Below are positions 29,218 through 34,700 of a DNA stretch of 64,000 nucleotides, piece by piece (position 1 is the first letter of the stretch; every line of letters begins with the position of its first letter). The DNA comes from Candidatus Multivoradales bacterium. Lineage in GTDB: Bacteria > Acidobacteriota > Thermoanaerobaculia > Multivoradales > JAHEKO01. A program made the position numbers and the translations under genes. The stretch spans positions 384,001 to 448,000 of the forward strand of contig CBDCXM010000008.1 of assembly GCA_965223855.1 (NCBI GenBank), read 5' to 3'. The notes beneath the pieces are model-generated. The model was not told the DNA's origin. It was given only the letters and a program-made list of their open reading frames with translations, and ran no database searches.

Positions 29218-29835
29218 ATGCATCGTTCCACCCTCCGTGTCCTCGGCGCGCTCGCCGCCTTCGCCGTGCTCGCCTTCGCCGGCCAGAGCGCCACCGCCGC
29301 CTCGTGGACCGTCGACAACGCCCATTCCGAGGTCAACTTCTCGATCAACCACTTCTTCACCCCGGTCACCGGCGGCTTCGGCGAGTTCGAGATCGACCTC
29401 GACTACAACGAGGACGACCCTGCCGCCTCTTCGGTCAGCGCCACCATCCAGGTGGCGAGCGTCGATACAGGCAACGAGCGCCGCGACGGCCATCTGAAGA
29501 CCGGCGACTTCTTCGACGCCGAGACCTACCCGACGATCACCTTCGAGAGCACCTCGGTGCGCGCCGAGGGCGACGGCCTGGTGGCGACCGGCAACCTCAC
29601 CATCCGCGACCAGACGAGTGAGGTCGAGCTACCGATCCAGATCCTCGGCGTTCAGGAGATCCCCGAGGAGATGCGCGAGCGGATGGGCGGCAGCGAGAAG
29701 GTCGCCGGCTTCAAGGCCGACCTCGCGATCGACCGCGGCGACTACGGTGTCGGCAGCGGCAACTTCGCGGCTACGCTGGTCGTCGGCGGCGAAGTGAGGA
29801 TCGAGCTGCTGGTCGAGGCGCACCTGCGTCCCTGA
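29218..29835 (+). CDS. yceI: YceI-family periplasmic lipid/polyisoprenoid-binding protein
   Basis: WTVDNAHSEVNF, SVDTGNERRDGHLKTGDFFD...YPTITF, GNLTIR. Confidence 0.93.
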   Translation: MHRSTLRVLGALAAFAVLAFAGQSATAASWTVDNAHSEVNFSINHFFTPVTGGFGEFEIDLDYNEDDPAASSVSATIQVASVDTGNERRDGHLKTGDFFDAETYPTITFESTSVRAEGDGLVATGNLTIRDQTSEVELPIQILGVQEIPEEMRERMGGSEKVAGFKADLAIDRGDYGVGSGNFAATLVVGGEVRIELLVEAHLRP

Positions 29836-29991: not shown

Positions 29992-30225
29992 ATGGCACGG
30001 CTCACCATCACTCTCCCCGACGACCTCCACCAGGCGCTGAAGCAGGCCTCCGCGAGGCGGCGAAAGACGATCGGCGACCTCGTGTGCGAGAGCCTGACGG
30101 CCTACGGCATCAAGCCGGAGGAGGAGGTCCGGGCGCTGATCGAGGCCGCCCGACGACGGTCCGGGCTTTCCGGGGAGGAAGCGGTGGAGCTGGCGCTGGC
30201 CGAGACGCGGGCTCACCGCGGTTGA
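29992..30225 (+). CDS. Ribbon-helix-helix (CopG-like) antitoxin
   Basis: MARLTITLPDDLHQALK RHH pattern, 77 aa, directly upstream of a PIN gene. Confidence 0.8.
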   Translation: MARLTITLPDDLHQALKQASARRRKTIGDLVCESLTAYGIKPEEEVRALIEAARRRSGLSGEEAVELALAETRAHRG

Positions 30226-30653
30226 GCAGCTCCCGGCCGGCGGTCGTCGATACCAACGTCGTCGTCTCCGGCCTCCTGTCGCCGGAGGGTGGAGCGCCAG
30301 CAACGGTTCTCGACGCTATGGTCTCGGGTGAGCTGAGATTCGCGGTGTCGGTGGAGCTGCTGGCCGAGTACCGCGCGGTGCTGCTGAGGCCCCGAATCCG
30401 GAGCCGTCATCAACTCGGCGCGCCGGCGGTCGACGTACTCCTCGCGGAGCTGGCGCGTAACGCCGTCGTCGTCGATCCCGTTCGCTCCACGCTCGAAGCG
30501 CCGGACACAGGCGACCAGTTCCTTCTCGACCTCGTCGCCACGCTCGAGGGCACCGTGCTCGTCACCGGCGATCTCGCGCTGCTCGAGGCCGGGCTGCCCA
30601 TCCAGGCTTTCTCCCCGAAGGCATTCCTGGAGTCAGCTCGGTGGATCGACTGA
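30222..30653 (+). CDS. PIN-domain toxin (PIN_3 / TIGR00305-like)
   Basis: VVDTNVVVSGLL, LLAEY..VL.RP, D..D.FL, LVTGD..LL. TTG start overlaps the antitoxin stop. Confidence 0.85.
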   Translation: MSSSRPAVVDTNVVVSGLLSPEGGAPATVLDAMVSGELRFAVSVELLAEYRAVLLRPRIRSRHQLGAPAVDVLLAELARNAVVVDPVRSTLEAPDTGDQFLLDLVATLEGTVLVTGDLALLEAGLPIQAFSPKAFLESARWID

Positions 30654-30732
30654 AGCGCCAGATCTTCACCCTCACGAGCAGCGCGGCGTCGTCTACCGGA
30701 CTCACTTGACCACTCTCGACGCCTTCTGTCAC

Positions 30733-30871
30733 CCTCCTCCCGGCGACGGTCCTCGCCCAACCTCTTCGACCCTCCCCCGGCGGGGGTCCCTGCGAGGCAA
30801 AGGGGGGCATACTCCCGGATCGGCAACCTGAGTCCTTCGACCCGGGTCGCACCGCGCCGCCGGGGGCGAGG
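30733..30871 (+). ncRNA. Candidate structured 5' leader RNA (multi-stem)
   Basis: Nested stems found by eye: 30737-30745/30858-30866, 30755-30758/30805-30808, 30761-30764/30794-30797, 30768-30774/30782-30788, 30826-30834/30839-30847. TTGACC at 30706-30711 upstream. Confidence 0.5.
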
Positions 30872-30900
30872 CGGCGACCCTGTGTCTGAAGGAGATTCGG

Positions 30901-31566
30901 ATGCCGAAGAACAAGGACTTGAAGCGCCGTGTGCGCGAGCGCATGGAGAAGACGGGCGAGTCGTACGCCGCCGCCCGCGCGCAGTTGATCGACCGCAAGG
31001 CGAAGCTCGAACAGGAGCGCTACGCCGAGCTGGCGGAGATGAGCGAATCGTCGGTGGTGCGCGCCACCGGCCGGGATTGGAGCTGGTGGGTCGATACCCT
31101 CGACGCCGCCGGCGCGACCGAGCTCGCGCACCGCGAGGTGGCGTTGTGGGTGCACGAGGAGCACGGCGTCTCTCCCTGGTGGAGCCAGCAGGTCGTCGTC
31201 GGCTACGAGCGGATTCGCGGGCTCCGCACCGTCGGGCAGCGGCGCGACGGCGGCTTCGACGCCAACAAGAGCCGCACCTTCCCGGTCGCCGTGGAAGTGC
31301 TCTTCGAAGCCTTCGTCGATGAGGGAACACGGAGCCGCTGGCTGGGCGACCTACCGTGGAGCGAGCGCGCCTCGCAGGAGAACCGGTCGCTGCGCCTCGA
31401 CGTCGAGGAGGGGCGGATCGCCGCTCTCTGGTTCACCGACAAGGGGGCCGGGAAGTCGAGCGTGCAGGTGCAAGAGGGCGGCCATCCGACCAAGGTCTCG
31501 GCCGAGGCCGCGAAGAGCCGGTGGCAGGAGCGCTTCGACGCGCTCGCCCAGCAGTTCGTGACCTGA
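30901..31566 (+). CDS. Hypothetical protein: basic 'KRRVRERMEKTGESY' N-terminus, DUF4287-like middle, SRPBCC-like C-terminus
   Basis: SD GAAGGAGA; 'ATGRDWSWWVDTLD', 'HGVSPWWSQQVVVGYE', 'KSRTFPVAVEVLFEAF...RWL'. Confidence 0.75.
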   Translation: MPKNKDLKRRVRERMEKTGESYAAARAQLIDRKAKLEQERYAELAEMSESSVVRATGRDWSWWVDTLDAAGATELAHREVALWVHEEHGVSPWWSQQVVVGYERIRGLRTVGQRRDGGFDANKSRTFPVAVEVLFEAFVDEGTRSRWLGDLPWSERASQENRSLRLDVEEGRIAALWFTDKGAGKSSVQVQEGGHPTKVSAEAAKSRWQERFDALAQQFVT

Positions 31567-31720
31567 CCGCGACTCAGCCGGCCGAAGCCGGGATCGAAGC
31601 GCTCGGCTCGCGAAGCTGCGGGGCTCGCTGGCGGCGCTCCGATAGGCTCGGGGCCGTTCCGAGTTCAACGTCTTCCGAAGCCGCCGCCCTCCCCAGGGGG
31701 CGGCGGAAAGGAGTCCGCCG

Positions 31721-34700
31721 ATGTCGCCCAAGCTCCCGCTCACGACGCCCTCTCCTGCCCTACCGGTTGCCGCGCTTCTGTGCGCGGCCCTCCTGACGGC
31801 AACCCTGCTCTCGACCGCGCCGGTCGCCGCCGACGACCACGCCCTGACGATCGACGACATCGTCTCCCAGCTGCGCCTGCGCAGCATCGGCCCGGCGATG
31901 ATGGGCGGCCGCATCGCCGACATCGCGATCCACCCCGACCGTCCCCACACCTGGTACCTCGGCGTCGGCTCCGGGGGCGTGTGGAAGACGACCAACTCCG
32001 GCACCACCTGGGCGCCGATCTTCGACGACCAGCCGTCGTACTCGATCGGCTGCGTGACGATCGACCCCGCCAACCCGGACGTCGTCTGGGTCGGCACCGG
32101 CGAGAACGTCAGCGGGCGCCATGTCGGCTGGGGCAGCGGCGTCTACAGGAGCGACGACGGCGGCGCCTCCTGGCGAGCGATGGGCCTCGAGTCGAGCGAG
32201 CACATCGGCCGCATCCTCGTGGATCCGCGCGACTCCGACGTCGTGCTGGTCGCCGCCGAAGGTCCGCTGTGGTCTTCGGGCGGCGAGCGCGGCGTCTACC
32301 GCTCGGCTGATGGCGGTTCCACCTGGGAGCGGGTGCTCCACGTCGACGACGACACCGGCGCCACGAGCCTCGAGCGCGACCCCAGCGACCCGGACGTGCT
32401 CTATGCCGCCACCTACCAGCGCCGGCGCTCGGTGTGGTCGCACCTCGCCGGCGGACCGGGGTCCGGGATCCACAAGTCGACCGACGGCGGGCTCACCTGG
32501 ACCCAGCTCGAGAGCGGCCTCCCCTCGGGTGACATGGGGAAGATCGGCCTCACCGTTTCGCCCGTCGACCCGGCGGTCATCTACGCCACCATCGAGGCGC
32601 ACGAGGACGAGCGCGGCTTCTACCGTTCGGTCGACCGCGGCGCCACCTGGACGAAGCGCTCGAGCTATCTCTCGAACGGCACCGGCCCGCACTACTACCA
32701 GGAGATCTACGCCTCGCCTCACGACGTCGATCACGTCTACCAGATGGACGTCTTCCTCCACCAGACGCTCGACGGCGGCGCCAACTTCGAGATCGTCGGC
32801 AACGGCCGCGAGAAGCACAGCGACAACCACGCGCTGTGGATCGACCCGGGAGATGCCAATCACCTGCTGATCGGTACCGACGCCGGCCTCTACGAGAGCT
32901 TCGACCGCGGTACCACGTGGCGCCATACGCCGAACCTGCCGATCTCGCAGCTCTACAAGCTCGCCGTCGAGCAGACGACGCCGTTCTACGACCTGCTCGG
33001 CGGCGCACAGGACCTCGGCACTCTCCACGGCCCGGCGCGCAGCCGCAGCCGCGAGGGGATCCGCAGCTCCGAGTGGTACGTGCCGCTCGGCGCCGACGGC
33101 TACTCGTCGGCGTTCGACCGCGAGGACTCCGATCTGCTCTACATCGAGTGGCAGGTAGGGCGCCTGGTGCGCTACGACCGCAAGAGCGAAGAGATGATCG
33201 ACATCCAGCCGCTACCGGCGGCCGGCGAGCCTGCCGAGCGCTTCAACTGGGACGCCCCGGTACGCACCAGCCCGCACTCGCCGACGCGGCTCTACTTCGC
33301 CTCGCAGCGGCTGTGGCGGAGCGACAACCGCGGCGACTCGTGGACGGCGATCAGCGGCGACCTGACCCGCGGCGAGAACCGCTACACCCTGCCGATGGCG
33401 GGGCGCGTCCAGAGCGTCGACGCGCTCTACGACAACACCGCGATGTCGTGGTACGCCACCGTGACGTCGATCGCCGAGTCGCCGCTCGACGAAGCGCTCG
33501 TCTACACCGGCAGCGACGACGGCCTTGTCCAGGTGACCGAGGACGGCGGCGACAACTGGCGGCGGTGCTCGCTGCCGCGGGAGATTCCCGAGCGCTCGTT
33601 CGTCAACGACCTGCGCGCCTCGCAACACGATGCCGACACCGTCTTCGCGGTGCTCGACAACCATAAGGAGGGAGACTTCCGGCCGCTCCTGATCGAGAGC
33701 CGCGACCGCTGCCGCAGCTGGCGGTCGATCGCCGGCGACCTGCCGGAGGCGTCGATCCTGTGGGCGGTCGACGAGGACCACGTGTTGCCGGAGCTTCTGT
33801 TCGTCGGCGCCGAGCACGGTCTGTGGGCGACCCTCGACGGCGGCGAGCGGTGGATCGAGCTCTCGGCCGGCGTGCCGACGATCTCGTTCCGCGACATCGA
33901 GATCCATCGCGAGCGCAGCGACCTCGTCGCCGCGACGTTCGGCCGCGGCATGTACGTGCTCGACGACTACTCGCCGCTGCGCGAACTGGCGAAGGGCGGC
34001 GTCCCCGACGAGGGCTCGCTGTTCCCGGTCAGGGACACCTGGGCCTACGTGCCGACGGTGCCGATGCAGGCTCCGGGCAAGCCGACCCTCGGGAGCACCG
34101 ACTACGCCGGCGAGAATCCGCCGCAAGGGGCGCTTCTGCGCTACCTCGTGACCAGCGACACGCCGACCGCCGCCGAGCGGCGGCGCGAGGGCGAGTCGGA
34201 CGGGGACGGCGACGTCTCCTTCCCCGGTTGGGAGACGTTGCGCGAAGAGGCGCTCGAGTCGGCTCCCGAGGTCCTGGTGACGATTCGCGACGCCGAGGGG
34301 GATCCGGTGCGCCGCCTGGCCGGTCCGGCTACCCGCGGCCTTCACACTCTCTCCTGGGACCTGCGCCGCCAGGCGGCCGACCCGGTCGAGCTCTCCCCGC
34401 CCTCCTTCCGCCCGCCGTGGGCGGGCGAGCGGCAGGGGCCGCTCGTCGCACCGGGCTCCTACTCCGCCACCCTCGAACTGTTGACCGCGGACGGCAGCGT
34501 GCCACTGGGCGGTCCGCAGGCGTTCGAGGTCCATGCTCTCGCCGGCCGCTCTCTGCCGAGCGACTTCGCCGCCGCGGCGGCGTTCCAGGAGCGCACGGCG
34601 GCGCTCCTGCGCGACGTCGTCTCCGAGGCGCGGGAGCTGGGCCGTCACGAAGAGGCGGTCGCCGCCTGGCGGGCGACGCTCGAGGAGACCCCCGCGGCGA

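Follow-up and report, generated by a model that had tools for sequence, protein, structure and literature searches.

Ribosomal-protein leaders, among them the S15/rpsO pseudoknot and the leaders of L20 and L1, mediate autogenous translational repression. In the arginine-rich-motif systems, such as lambda N/boxB, HIV Tat/TAR, and Rev/RRE, a peptide is paired with an RNA hairpin. The translational riboswitches preQ1-II, SAM-II, and NAD+-II combine a pseudoknotted aptamer with sequestration of the Shine-Dalgarno (SD) sequence, and riboswitch-type motifs typically take their names from their gene association. Autogenous repression by ribosomal-protein leaders is treated in PMC3616713, and the NAD+-II riboswitch in PMC7749635.

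In the window (the whole 64,000-nt stretch of DNA that was analyzed), the gap between the PIN gene, which ends at 30653, and the ATG at 30901 contains a conserved structured leader. Our analysis suggests that this leader and the N-terminal basic peptide encoded behind it constitute an undescribed, transferable self-regulating RNA-peptide module. The main features of the locus are as follows.

30706..30711, + strand: TTGACC, 36 nt before P1, which probably serves as the -35 box of a promoter specific to the leader
30742..30900, + strand: conserved 5′ leader RNA of ~160 nt, from P1 to the last base ahead of the ATG
30901..31566, + strand: CDS of 221 aa, with the N-terminal peptide, a DUF4287-like helical domain, and an SRPBCC/AHSA1 domain
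30901..30990, + strand: conserved basic helical-hairpin peptide MPKNKDLKRRVRERMEKTGESYAAARAQLI, codons 1-30
31054..31197, + strand: DUF4287-like domain, residues 52-99 (Pfam PF14117)
31255..31560, + strand: SRPBCC/AHSA1-fold domain, residues 119-220 (Foldseek against the PDB)

As with ribosomal-protein leaders, a structured and often pseudoknotted 5′ UTR overlaps the ribosome-binding site (RBS) of the gene for the presumed binder, and one leader would serve one gene by feedback. However, a ribosomal-protein leader mimics the rRNA site of its protein, is recognized by the whole RNA-binding protein, and stays paired with a single gene family. The putative binder here is a 30-residue tag that can be detached and that occurs on four or more unrelated proteins, with no evident rRNA mimicry. 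Like the arginine-rich-motif peptides, the tag, which is short, basic, and predicted to be helical, is located at the end of a protein and would act as a self-contained module for RNA recognition. The RNAs of those peptides are small hairpins that serve antitermination or export, whereas this RNA has ~160 nt, two pseudoknots, and an SD helix; the tag itself is predicted to be a hairpin of two helices whose TGESY turn is invariant, and none was found in phage records. The leader shares with preQ1-II, SAM-II, and NAD+-II a conserved pseudoknotted 5′ UTR and a paired SD region, but its genes are linked by a shared N-terminal peptide rather than by a pathway, and no Rfam riboswitch model matches it.

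The first-pass annotation could assign no Rfam family to the leader, and the cmscan comparison agrees. Positions 30400-31800 gave three weak matches to Rfam 15 (4227 models, E ≤ 10), none of them in the leader; 20 homologous loci gave only a tRNA elsewhere at the gathering score; and six loci of other architectures gave nothing on the leader strand at E ≤ 1. A literature search found no published description of the leader.

The leader has a conserved structure that pairs the Shine-Dalgarno region

The sequence of the leader taken singly does not fold better than its shuffles. The minimum free energy is -102 kcal/mol compared with a shuffle mean of -103.5 (z = +0.28), and 118 of 200 shuffles fold as well or better. 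Therefore, the structural signal comes only from the comparison between species. The first-pass annotation had described a highly structured leader before the gene; a conserved structured leader is indeed present, whereas the description does not apply to the single sequence.

In the main alignment of 79 homologous leaders from many phyla (A2, constructed with MAFFT), nine helices covary, including two pseudoknots and an anti-SD:SD helix. The nine helices are paired in 94.3% of cells compared with 87.3% in shuffles, with compensatory changes at 32 of 46 pairs compared with 17.9 in shuffles, and none of 500 shuffles matched the nine-helix score; because homologous leaders share kinship, these counts overstate the number of independent events. 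When the partners were slid, pairing fell to 41-55%. RNAalifold and a mutual-information scan recovered the same helices. In an independent alignment of 100 sequences, which was not fitted to the pseudoknots, the two pseudoknots taken together were 98.3% paired with 9 of 12 pairs compensated, and at most 50.5% of cells were paired when the partners were slid. An R1 covariance model matched 30731-30906 with 130 bits (E 4.7e-29), and this is its sole match in the 4.5-Mb genome; elsewhere it gave one specific match per genome with 100-170 bits across many phyla. Chance folding of a GC-rich spacer without a functional element would be in line with the single-sequence energies, but the compensated pairs, the shuffle scores, and the specific matches across phyla refute it, and we regard its probability as negligible. 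The helices and the core are listed below.

30742-45 with 30754-57, + strand: hairpin P1 (GGCG/CGCC), whose loop holds the 5′ strand of PK2
30748-52 with 30817-21, + strand: pseudoknot PK2 between the P1 loop and a strand right after P4 (GGUCC/GGAUC)
30761-64 with 30794-97, + strand: P2 (CCUC/GAGG), which encloses P3
30768-74 with 30782-88, + strand: hairpin P3 (GACCCUC/GGGGGUC) with the loop CCCCGGC
30775-81 with 30859-65, + strand: pseudoknot PK1, a loop-loop kiss of the P3 loop (CCCCGGC/GCCGGGG)
30794-30803, + strand: invariant core GAGGCAAAGG, made of the P2 3′ strand, the CAAA junction, and the start of P4
30802-06 with 30812-16, + strand: hairpin P4 (GGGGG/CUCCC) with the loop GCAUA
30834..30839, + strand: anti-SD strand CCUUCG, which pairs with 30887-92
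30844-50 with 30874-80, + strand: P6 (GGGUCGC/GCGACCC), which encloses P7, whose loop is the PK1 3′ strand
30887..30895, + strand: SD region UGAAGGAGA, whose first six bases pair with the anti-SD strand

P1 is the weakest helix because only 82.3% of its cells are paired in the MAFFT alignment and a single pair shows a compensatory change; its variants include GGCU/AGCC (L001) and GGCC/GGCC (L022 and L046). In the 79 leaders, all five pairs of PK2 are compensated and 97.7% are paired (96.0% in a model-independent count of the 100 sequences), and RNAalifold also chose this helix unaided. P2 is paired in 99.7% of cells, with one pair compensated (U-A to C-G in six sequences). All seven pairs of P3 are compensated (94.7% paired), and they are the top mutual-information pairs. 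PK1, which in the window can be extended to 9 bp (30774-82 with 30858-66), is 99.5% paired in the 79 leaders with 4 of 7 pairs compensated, and 100% paired in the 100 sequences. P4 is 99.7% paired, with G-C replaced by A-U in six and in two of the 79 sequences, and at one of its pairs (A2 columns 113-121) 64 of the 79 sequences have G-U; the presence of G-U pairs fixes the strand of the leader as +. In the 79 leaders, P6 has 5/5 pairs compensated (86.5% paired) and P7 has 3/3 (90.7% paired). The register given here for P6 in the window comes from direct reading of that sequence, and P7 is irregular in the window. The columns of GGCAAAGG are invariant in 79 of 79 sequences, and this motif sits 98-162 nt before the start codon in 80 of 80 loci. 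The core is retained in the leaders of the hydrolase, Nonomuraea, TPR, and L110 types described below.

The first-pass annotation had picked out several of these elements by eye. Its CCTC/GAGG stem is P2, its two further hairpins correspond to P3 and P4, and the invariant core GAGGCAAAGG is confirmed. Its secondary-structure drawing was largely wrong in other respects. The proposed outer stem CTCCCGGCG/CGCCGGGGG is 64.1% paired compared with 64.2% in shuffles (289 of 500 shuffles reach that value), and the actual partner of its 3′ strand is the P3 loop, with which it forms a pseudoknot. The proposed GCCC/GGGC stem is pairable in 92.7% of cells, which equals the shuffles, shows no compensatory change, and clashes with the covarying P4. 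The structure was also thought to end about 30 nt before the ATG, whereas it takes in the SD region at 30887-92, 8 nt before the ATG.

The SD bases 30887-92 are paired with 30834-39 within the conserved structure, which thereby overlaps the RBS of its gene. The anti-SD:SD helix (CCUUYG:CRAAGG) covaries in the 79 leaders; one column pair of A2 (172-232) is U-A in 35, C-G in 30, and U-G in 5 of the 79 sequences, and RNAalifold found the helix independently. In hydrolase-type leaders, SD pairing is weak (n = 6 sequences). A pairing of the anti-SD strand with CAAAGG of the invariant core was rejected: 86.9% of it is pairable, no covariation is seen, and the variable base tracks the SD and not the core. 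Its role as an alternative switch partner is speculative. No terminator-like site was found in the window.

A TTGACC just 5′ of the structure had been pointed out from the start, and it is probably the -35 box of the leader's own promoter, judging from the homologous leaders: 69 of 99 have a TTG[AC][CA] box 35-41 nt before P1, and P1 follows the end of -10-like boxes by about 7-10 nt. This promoter is putative, because a consensus scan shows no canonical sigma-70 site in the window.

The RNA occurs together with an N-terminal peptide

The window protein starts with MPKNKDLKRRVRERMEKTGESYAAARAQL. Its CDS has 1237 homologues at E ≤ 0.001 among 1840 candidates, and the AF2 model has a mean pLDDT of 90.2, with predicted helices at residues 3-18 and 22-39 that would make the peptide a basic helical hairpin. 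The peptide has the consensus xKDLKRxVRxRMxKTGESYxxAR, and 13 positions are invariant in 28 full-length homologues. Its third codon positions vary freely (entropy mostly 0.5-1.8 bits), and it is therefore conserved as a protein and not as RNA. A search at E ≤ 0.001 found the motif in 3877 representative proteins. Pfam gave nothing for the 40-aa peptide at E ≤ 1, the peptide profile gave only a chance match among PDB sequences (E 0.58), and an ESM Atlas search returned no usable match. Mimicry of bS21 was considered and rejected (hhalign probability 0.1%, and no BLASTP alignment to bS21 of the same genome).

The PF14117 match of the window protein has 24.8 bits in hmmscan (E 2.2e-5; gathering cut-off 27 bits), 26.8 bits in a six-frame search, and 27.2 bits with in-frame neighbors, and many homologues bear a precomputed PF14117 assignment. 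For the C-terminal domain, the top PDB matches in Foldseek are AHSA1/START-like (3rd6_A, E 9.5e-5; 8es5_A, E 1e-4; probability 1.00), and the AF2 model has 25 matches among PDB chains at E ≤ 0.001, every one of which resembles AHSA1, START, or Bet v 1, in line with a helix-grip fold. Some homologues are labeled SRPBCC or YndB at source.

Across many bacterial phyla, the same leader and peptide accompany at least four kinds of protein that are unrelated to one another. In the main DUF4287-SRPBCC family, 100 of 100 sources have one R1 match each, and the core motif is present in 80 of 80 loci, which is not an unbiased test because these loci were gathered partly via the peptide pattern. The RNA also precedes a divergent type of DUF4287 paralogue (2/2), tagged carbon-nitrogen hydrolases of Sinorhizobium, Rhizobium, Microvirga, and Streptomyces (6/6, 51.6-81.5 bits), which sit on rhizobial and Streptomyces plasmids, a tagged 365-aa protein of Nonomuraea (46.5 bits over the 5′ core), and a myxobacterial TPR protein that was reached by an RNA-first search (57 bits). 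These proteins bear out the statement in the first-pass annotation that TGESY-type N-termini stand on varied proteins behind such leaders.

In contrast, homologues that lack the peptide lack the RNA. It was found before none of six hydrolase homologues (best E 0.24) and neither of two intact DUF4287-SRPBCC paralogues (L107 and L114), and the canonical DUF4287 gene of the same genome has no leader, which makes zero of three intact DUF4287 paralogues in total. Two fragmentary DUF4287 matches (L108 and L112) have no RNA either (best E 0.57 over L107, L108, L112, and L114). Although the window protein has a DUF4287-like domain (PF14117) and an SRPBCC/AHSA1 domain (PF08327), canonical proteins with these domains and without the tag, including the one in the same genome, have no leader. 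The RNA goes with the tag rather than with either domain. RNA-first searches gave 14, 5, and 3 matches (21 distinct) in 61, 5, and 101 genomes, and all 21 are followed by an ORF that starts with the peptide, about 85-130 nt past the core. Co-occurrence of RNA and peptide is thus strict, and the pair is portable. As far as sequence comparison tells, the RNA tracks the N-terminal peptide and not the remainder of the protein, in agreement with the one-to-one pairing of a portable RNA element with a peptide that had been proposed at the outset.

The leader is present in one copy per genome in nearly all cases, and a regulon is absent. The 53 mechanically called downstream ORFs form clusters of at most two; there is no conserved operon partner, and only the tagged gene itself would be regulated, as in autogenous control. 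As in autogenous leaders, the structure overlaps the RBS and the leader is confined to tagged genes. As in riboswitches, there is a covarying aptamer-like structure in the 5′ UTR, with the anti-SD:SD helix as a putative expression platform; the genes behind the leader show no common ligand that their products would metabolize or transport. A classical riboswitch, in which the pseudoknotted core would be an aptamer for a small molecule or ion, the ligand would set the anti-SD:SD pairing, and the peptide would have another role, would suit the complex conserved fold with its invariant junction bases (GAGGCAAAGG, CAA) and two pseudoknots, the SD-sequestering platform, the wide phylogenetic spread, and the ligand-binding SRPBCC fold of one downstream domain. 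However, the SRPBCC proteins, the nitrilase-superfamily hydrolase, the TPR protein, and the protein of unknown family downstream share the tag and not a pathway, and untagged homologues of the same enzymes, the single copy per genome, and the Rfam comparison all point away from it. We consider a riboswitch unlikely; if the RNA is one, it would represent a new orphan class whose association with genes is unusual.

Several other architectures were set aside. Among the top 150 peptide matches, those with BacA, DnaJ, 2-Hacid_dh, and Pyr_redox_dim look like frameshifts or short-contig chimeras. In two representative proteins (P0174 and P0225), the tag is fused to Clp_N repeats, and this architecture may be a chimeric gene call. 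The loci closest to the Clp_N type in a protein search of 401 genomes, which was dominated by ClpB/ClpC, gave no RNA match (L115, an ordinary ClpC gene, and L116), and a metagenome scan found the tag in 0 of 80 Clp_N loci. A search of peptide region 1-40 against proteins of 388-2000 aa gave none at E ≤ 0.01, a negative that carries little weight. A blastn search of plasmids with the 5′ core found only the Nonomuraea site, which indicates that the method is too insensitive, and tblastn of the peptide against phage records gave no match. The Nonomuraea record holds two further peptide sites.

Divergent members have altered both partners. The PK1 strands are rewritten in step, to CCGUCGC/GCGACGG in L110 and L111 and to CCCCCGC/GCGGGGG in L254. 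In L110, L254, and the types from Streptomyces, Frondihabitans, and Euzebya, the kissing loops are rewritten and the tags are altered; at tag position 17, K/R gives way to D/E in the types SETGESY, ADTGETY, and ADTGEPY (L229, L235, L237, and L238). The peptide-RNA variants may be mutually orthogonal. Five divergent peptides (SETGESY, ADTGETY twice, AKAGESY, and ADTGEPY) gave no significant R1 match (best E 0.048-0.27), and either these peptides exist without this RNA or their RNA has diverged past the R1 model. In three of the five, a hairpin loop finds a perfect 7-nt partner near -30, as it does in true members, but some match of this sort also arises in 5-19 of 200 shuffles.

A putative self-regulating cassette

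We favor, with a probability of about 0.55, a portable cassette for translational autoregulation: the peptide would bind its own leader, and as part of this reading the 5′ UTR would be a new, widespread cis-regulatory RNA. The leader would be transcribed from its own promoter and fold compactly with two pseudoknots, and its 3′ domain would pair the SD with the upstream anti-SD strand and gate translation initiation. The first ~30 residues of the protein, a basic two-helix peptide, would bind the conserved core of their own leader, and the bound peptide would stabilize the SD-paired fold; repression is the presumed direction. The expression of any tag-bearing protein would then feed back on itself, and promoter, leader, and tag would move jointly as a cassette between unrelated genes and phyla. 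More tentatively, and at somewhat less than even odds, this mobile cassette of promoter, double-pseudoknot leader, and RNA-binding tag may be a plug-and-play homeostat that confers negative feedback at the protein level on any gene to which it is grafted.

Some observations speak against this reading. Neither Pfam (E ≤ 1) nor PDB sequences link the peptide to a known RNA-binding family, and the fold, with many invariant unpaired bases and two pseudoknots, resembles a small-molecule aptamer.

Promoter, leader, and tag might also move as an adjacent block with no interaction between RNA and peptide. The RNA would then be the target of another trans factor (protein, small RNA, or ribosome) or a constitutive or thermosensing gate, and the peptide would be a DNA-binding autorepressor, a localization or partner-binding tag, or a degron. 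Over short evolutionary distances, linkage alone would suffice for the two to occur together; the predicted helical hairpin of the peptide is generic and basic, with no family assignment; and divergent peptides without detectable R1 RNA exist. However, RNA and peptide are each under strong separate purifying selection across phyla, they are still together after transfer to four unrelated genes, the 21 RNA-first matches include no peptide-less leader, and the stretch from the -35 box to P1 shows no conserved operator-like sequence. Co-inheritance without interaction appears rather unlikely to us.

Control by the nascent chain, in which the first ~30 residues would act in the exit tunnel by arrest or pausing and the leader would read ribosome traffic, finds some appeal in a conserved peptide of ~30 aa that is near the tunnel length and always at the extreme N-terminus. 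Against it, a ribosome paused near codon 30-35 would be ~100 nt past the SD helix, where remodeling of the 5′ domain is not obvious, and AF2 predicts a folded helical hairpin. The arrest peptides SecM, MifM, and TnaC act on genes further downstream and are not known as tags of diverse enzymes. This explanation seems very improbable.

If the peptide does bind its leader, the pair would be, to our knowledge, the first natural autoregulatory protein-RNA pair that is built as a small transferable module, in contrast to autoregulation that belongs to a single protein family. The known structured RNAs of bacteria would gain a large and well-supported family, and a very widespread, unannotated N-terminal motif would be accounted for. 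The pair would also provide synthetic biology with a compact peptide-RNA switch of ~30 aa and ~160 nt, one that would already be working in Acidobacteriota, Gemmatimonadota, Myxococcota, Planctomycetota, Chloroflexota, Alphaproteobacteria, and Actinomycetota.

The tagged gene and its surroundings

The 221-aa ORF downstream of the leader (30901-31566, + strand) begins with MPKNKDLKRRVRERMEKTGESYAAARAQL, and a spacer of 247 nt separates it from a PIN-domain gene ending at 30653. In the AlphaFold2 model (mean pLDDT 90.2), the protein opens with a helical hairpin (helices 3-18 and 22-39), after which comes a helical domain; the C-terminal domain has a helix-grip fold and resembles solved AHSA1/START-like structures in a structure comparison. 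A DUF4287 domain at residues 52-99 is marginal (Pfam, E 2.2e-5), its 24.8 bits falling short of the 27-bit cut-off.

Features around the leader
29218-29835, +, YceI-like protein with a signal-peptide-like N-terminus (Pfam, E 1.9e-45)
29992-30225, +, RHH (ParD/CopG-like) antitoxin-like ORF (Pfam)
ends 30653, +, PIN_3-domain ORF overlapping the RHH ORF (Pfam)
30706-11, +, TTGACC box, 36 nt before helix P1
31721-35011, +, 1096-aa ORF with a hydrophobic N-terminus, 155 nt 3' of the tagged gene (ORF call)

The RHH and PIN_3 ORFs (29992-30653) look like a VapBC-type toxin-antitoxin pair placed directly upstream of the putative leader promoter. They are unconnected with the leader finding, and the pair is not kept beside the leader elsewhere, as judged by the differing upstream sequences of other loci. 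Among 80 loci of the main family (tagged DUF4287-SRPBCC proteins), a same-strand ORF of at least 100 aa starts within 200 nt downstream of the tagged gene in 53. These 53 ORFs form clusters of at most two, revealing no conserved operon partner and no conserved linkage of the 1096-aa ORF to the tagged gene. Because no downstream partner is conserved, the leader is predicted to control only the tagged gene.

Covarying fold of the leader

In DNA of 68% GC, stems drawn by eye, as in the first-pass annotation, carry little weight. The ~250-nt spacer has a minimum free energy of -102 kcal/mol against a dinucleotide-shuffle mean of -103.5 kcal/mol (z +0.28), and 118 of 200 shuffles fold equally well or better. 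Taken alone, the fold of the window leader is nothing special; the proposal of a structured leader holds, however, in the conserved, covarying fold found upstream of homologous tagged proteins.

Of 1840 candidates, 1237 are homologues of the tagged protein at E<=0.001; they are ~50% identical over the full length and best conserved in the N-terminal 26 residues. Scanning one genome per species yielded 557 relatives, and the best 80 of these 557 loci, gathered partly via the peptide pattern, form the main-family set (judged by record title, Acidobacteriota, Gemmatimonadota, Planctomycetota, Myxococcota, Chloroflexota, Krumholzibacteriota, Eiseniibacteriota, and others). GGCAAAGG lies 98-162 nt 5' of the start codon in all 80, and the entire 160-175 nt upstream of the ATG can be aligned. 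RNAalifold, a mutual-information scan of all column pairs, and inspection agreed on nine helices.

Helices of the window leader
30742-45 with 30754-57, +, P1 (nine-helix comparison)
30748-52 with 30817-21, +, PK2, P1-loop GGUCC with GGAUC (covariation)
30761-64 with 30794-97, +, P2, CCUC with GAGG (covariation)
30768-74 with 30782-88, +, P3 (covariation)
30775-81 with 30859-65, +, PK1, P3-loop CCCCGGC kissing GCCGGGG, the loop of the small hairpin P7
30802-06 with 30812-16, +, P4 (covariation)
30834-39 with 30887-92, +, anti-SD CCUUCG with the SD region UGAAGG (covariation)
30844-50 with 30874-80, +, P6, which encloses P7 (covariation)

The MAFFT alignment A2 comprises 79 leaders, the window and 78 loci; L002, whose spacer is long, and L025, truncated at the end of its contig, were excluded, and both are matched by the leader covariance model R1. 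Standard pairs occupy 94.3% of 3604 cells against 87.3% in shuffles, and both sides change in 32 of 46 pairs against 17.9. None of 500 shuffles reached any pairing measure; such counts are not probabilities, as the counting tool itself warns, and related sequences are non-independent. Firmer evidence comes from the number of distinct pair types and from the slid controls, in which displacing the 3' partners by 1-3 columns lowers pairing to 41-55%. Chance as the origin of the pattern has a negligible probability.

PK1 and PK2 are especially clean. All five PK2 pairs show compensation, and PK1 changes from A-U to G-C in seven sequences and from C-G to U-A in three. At A2 columns 172-232, the anti-SD:SD helix has U-A in 35 of the 79 sequences and C-G in 30. 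One P4 pair is G-U in 64 of 79, and the G-U pairs thus mark the + strand as the functional one. P1 is the weakest helix (82.3% paired, one compensated pair). In an alignment of 100 hits of the model, fitted to a version from which both pseudoknots were absent, pseudoknot pairing was 98.3% and dropped to 50.5% or less on sliding; 9 of 12 pairs were compensated, and no shuffle out of 500 did equally well. Duplicate loci are apparent (L242-L246 equal L005, L004, L013, L011, and L021, respectively), and 97 of the 100 rows are distinct. No statement made here draws on the genomes flagged as unpublished (G209, G108, and G083).

The CCUC/GAGG stem of the first-pass annotation corresponds to P2, and its A-rich core was also correctly recognized. 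The proposed outer stem CTCCCGGCG/CGCCGGGGG pairs no better than in shuffles (64.1% against 64.2%) and is not conserved; CCCGGCG happens to be present twice in the window, and covariation identifies the P3 loop as the true partner of CGCCGGGGG. Pairing of GCCC with GGGC is possible in 92.7% of cells, without any covariation, and competes with the covarying P4. As a whole, the helix drawing does not survive.

The TTGACC box pointed out earlier is shared: TTG[AC][CA] starts 35-41 nt before P1 in 69 of 99 leaders, and -10-like boxes come after it, ending 7-10 nt short of P1. A consensus scan of the window locus came back without a canonical promoter or terminator. Judged from sequence, transcription probably begins at P1 or close to it. 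Rfam 15 gave no match to the window leader at E<=10, nor to the leaders of 20 main-family loci and six loci of other architectures, in keeping with the earlier failure to assign a family. No prior description of the RNA or the tag peptide was found in the literature searched. The leader is real and widespread, and within the reach of these searches it is an undescribed structured RNA.

Distribution of the leader and the tag

R1 matches once in the window's own genome, 14 times in 13 of 61 related genomes, once in each of five genomes of other phyla, and three times in a Myxococcota sample of 101 genomes. These RNA-first searches gave 21 distinct matches, each with a tag-initial ORF behind it. 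At L087/L109 (G034:C1:624290-624854), the leader is intact (148.5 bits) and the ORF leaves the family frame after ~21 codons (MPKEQDLKRLVRSRMKKTGEARDC...); the C-terminal half can still be made out in a different frame, suggestive of a recent frameshift or of faulty assembly. Genome G022 holds two copies of leader and tagged DUF4287-SRPBCC gene on different contigs (L082 and L094; 164.5 and 120.6 bits); all other genomes examined have one.

When the same 61 genomes were searched with residues 45-221 of the tagged protein, the 13 strong matches coincided with RNA matches. Two weaker-matching, untagged paralogues with intact frames, L107 (Lys/Ala-rich N-terminus) and L114 (no extension), have no RNA, nor do the fragmentary matches L108 and L112 (R1 filters off, best E 0.57 for the four). 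A canonical DUF4287 gene outside the window in its own genome (L225, G000:C8:506379-506549, - strand, 80.3 bits) has neither tag nor leader. Two ~30%-identical tagged paralogues (MTDARKLKAKIRARAERTGESYAAARRHV) lie behind a divergent leader that scores 35.4 and 33.2 bits (E 7e-8 and 2.4e-7) and keeps P1, P2, the CAAAGGGG core, and P3, with PK1 rewritten to CCGUCGC/GCGACGG. About 1 kb upstream of the divergent leader are direct repeats with a period of ~66 nt (L110 85-253), whose matches to Rfam CRISPR-DR9 (21.5-27.5 bits) stay below the gathering score of 45.

In a tblastn search of 72,556 plasmid records, the 36-aa tag turned up at the start of proteins annotated as 'carbon-nitrogen hydrolase family' from Sinorhizobium, Rhizobium, Phyllobacterium, Microvirga, and Streptomyces (L227 is a CN_hydrolase; Pfam E 8.4e-14), and also in Nonomuraea. 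The leader is present at all six tagged hydrolase loci examined (51.6-81.5 bits, PK1 intact). Six hydrolase homologues, 39-50% identical in the catalytic part and with annotated starts that leave the tag no space, have neither tag nor RNA (best E 0.24). The 365-aa tagged protein of Nonomuraea, with a weak hint of DUF1835 (E 0.065), follows the 5' core of the leader (46.5 bits, E 5e-11). The fourth architecture, from an RNA-first match in the Myxococcota sample, is a 57-bit leader before a TPR-repeat protein of 333 aa (MTAQRDLKHLIRDRQAKTGESYSTARAHVM...; TPR_14, E 5.2e-6); in this leader, PK1 is rewritten to CCCCCGC/GCGGGGG. A possible fifth, tag plus Clp_N repeats (P0174 and P0225), is known from protein sequence alone.

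The RNA therefore goes with the tag, not with the protein family. The same pair on four unrelated protein types considerably strengthens the proposal of a portable RNA with a cognate N-terminal peptide, and comparative data present leader and basic hairpin as an inseparable, transferable pair. A small-molecule riboswitch would agree with the look of the fold, but it leaves unexplained both a tag common to unrelated enzymes and the absence of the RNA in untagged homologues; we regard it as quite unlikely.

L230 (NZ_CP021215.1 29748-30355) combines a 51.6-bit leader and a tag with the first ~105 hydrolase residues only; ATA replaces ATG, and the frame stops after 161 codons; the stretch either lacks annotation or overlaps an 'enoyl-CoA hydratase-related' call. 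Five plasmids of Sinorhizobium meliloti or S. medicae are similar (H30-H35, H107-H112), and all of these, L230 included, are apparently decaying copies still retaining the RNA. The leader stretch of L013/L244 (NZ_MKZS01000001.1) is 67% GC, far above that of the cyanobacterium Moorena bouillonii to which it is assigned; its source may be a heterotroph living with the cyanobacterium and captured in the assembly.

The tag peptide and the proposed feedback

Over codons 1-32, third positions vary freely and the amino acids are fixed (for example, R12 is CGC in 56, CGA in 11, CGT in 10, and CGG in 4); the tag is selected as a peptide. Among 1.84 billion proteins, a 36-position tag profile matched 3877 representatives at E<=0.001 and 904 at E<=1e-10; the best 150 matches are mostly main-family fragments. 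Pfam, PDB sequences, and phage records gave no match to the tag, which resembles no known RNA-binding family. Position 17 is Lys or Arg in every RNA-carrying architecture, and Glu or Asp in three of four more divergent actinobacterial tag types unmatched by R1.

Five divergent tags had no significant R1 match. Upstream of three of these five, on Streptomyces, Frondihabitans, and Euzebya plasmids (L229, L236, and L238), a hairpin 112-166 nt before the start has a 7-nt loop with a perfect partner at -29 to -32, the PK1 geometry of true members, although some such match occurs in 5-19 of 200 shuffles. L229 has GGCCAAGG where true members have GGCAAAGG. These hairpins are possibly divergent sister leaders invisible to R1, and we treat them as a lead only.

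Covariation places the SD region in one strand of a helix that belongs to a compact 5' UTR with two pseudoknots, and the leader is thus predicted to gate ribosome access. Control by the nascent chain is very improbable. Leader and tag could also have been co-inherited without interacting; this is hard to reconcile with the purifying selection that each of them has kept separately on moving to four unrelated genes, and we consider such co-inheritance unlikely, though less so than a riboswitch. From the SD helix and the inseparable pair, we infer instead that the tag probably binds its own leader at the conserved core; as the tag leaves the ribosome first, it could act in cis. More speculatively, the invariant core CAAAGG, identical to the commonest SD-region sequence and able to pair with the anti-SD in 86.9% of cells with no covariation, might, when nothing fixes the core, compete with the SD region for that strand. 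The bound tag would stabilize the closed, SD-paired fold, which would impose negative feedback on whatever protein bears the tag.
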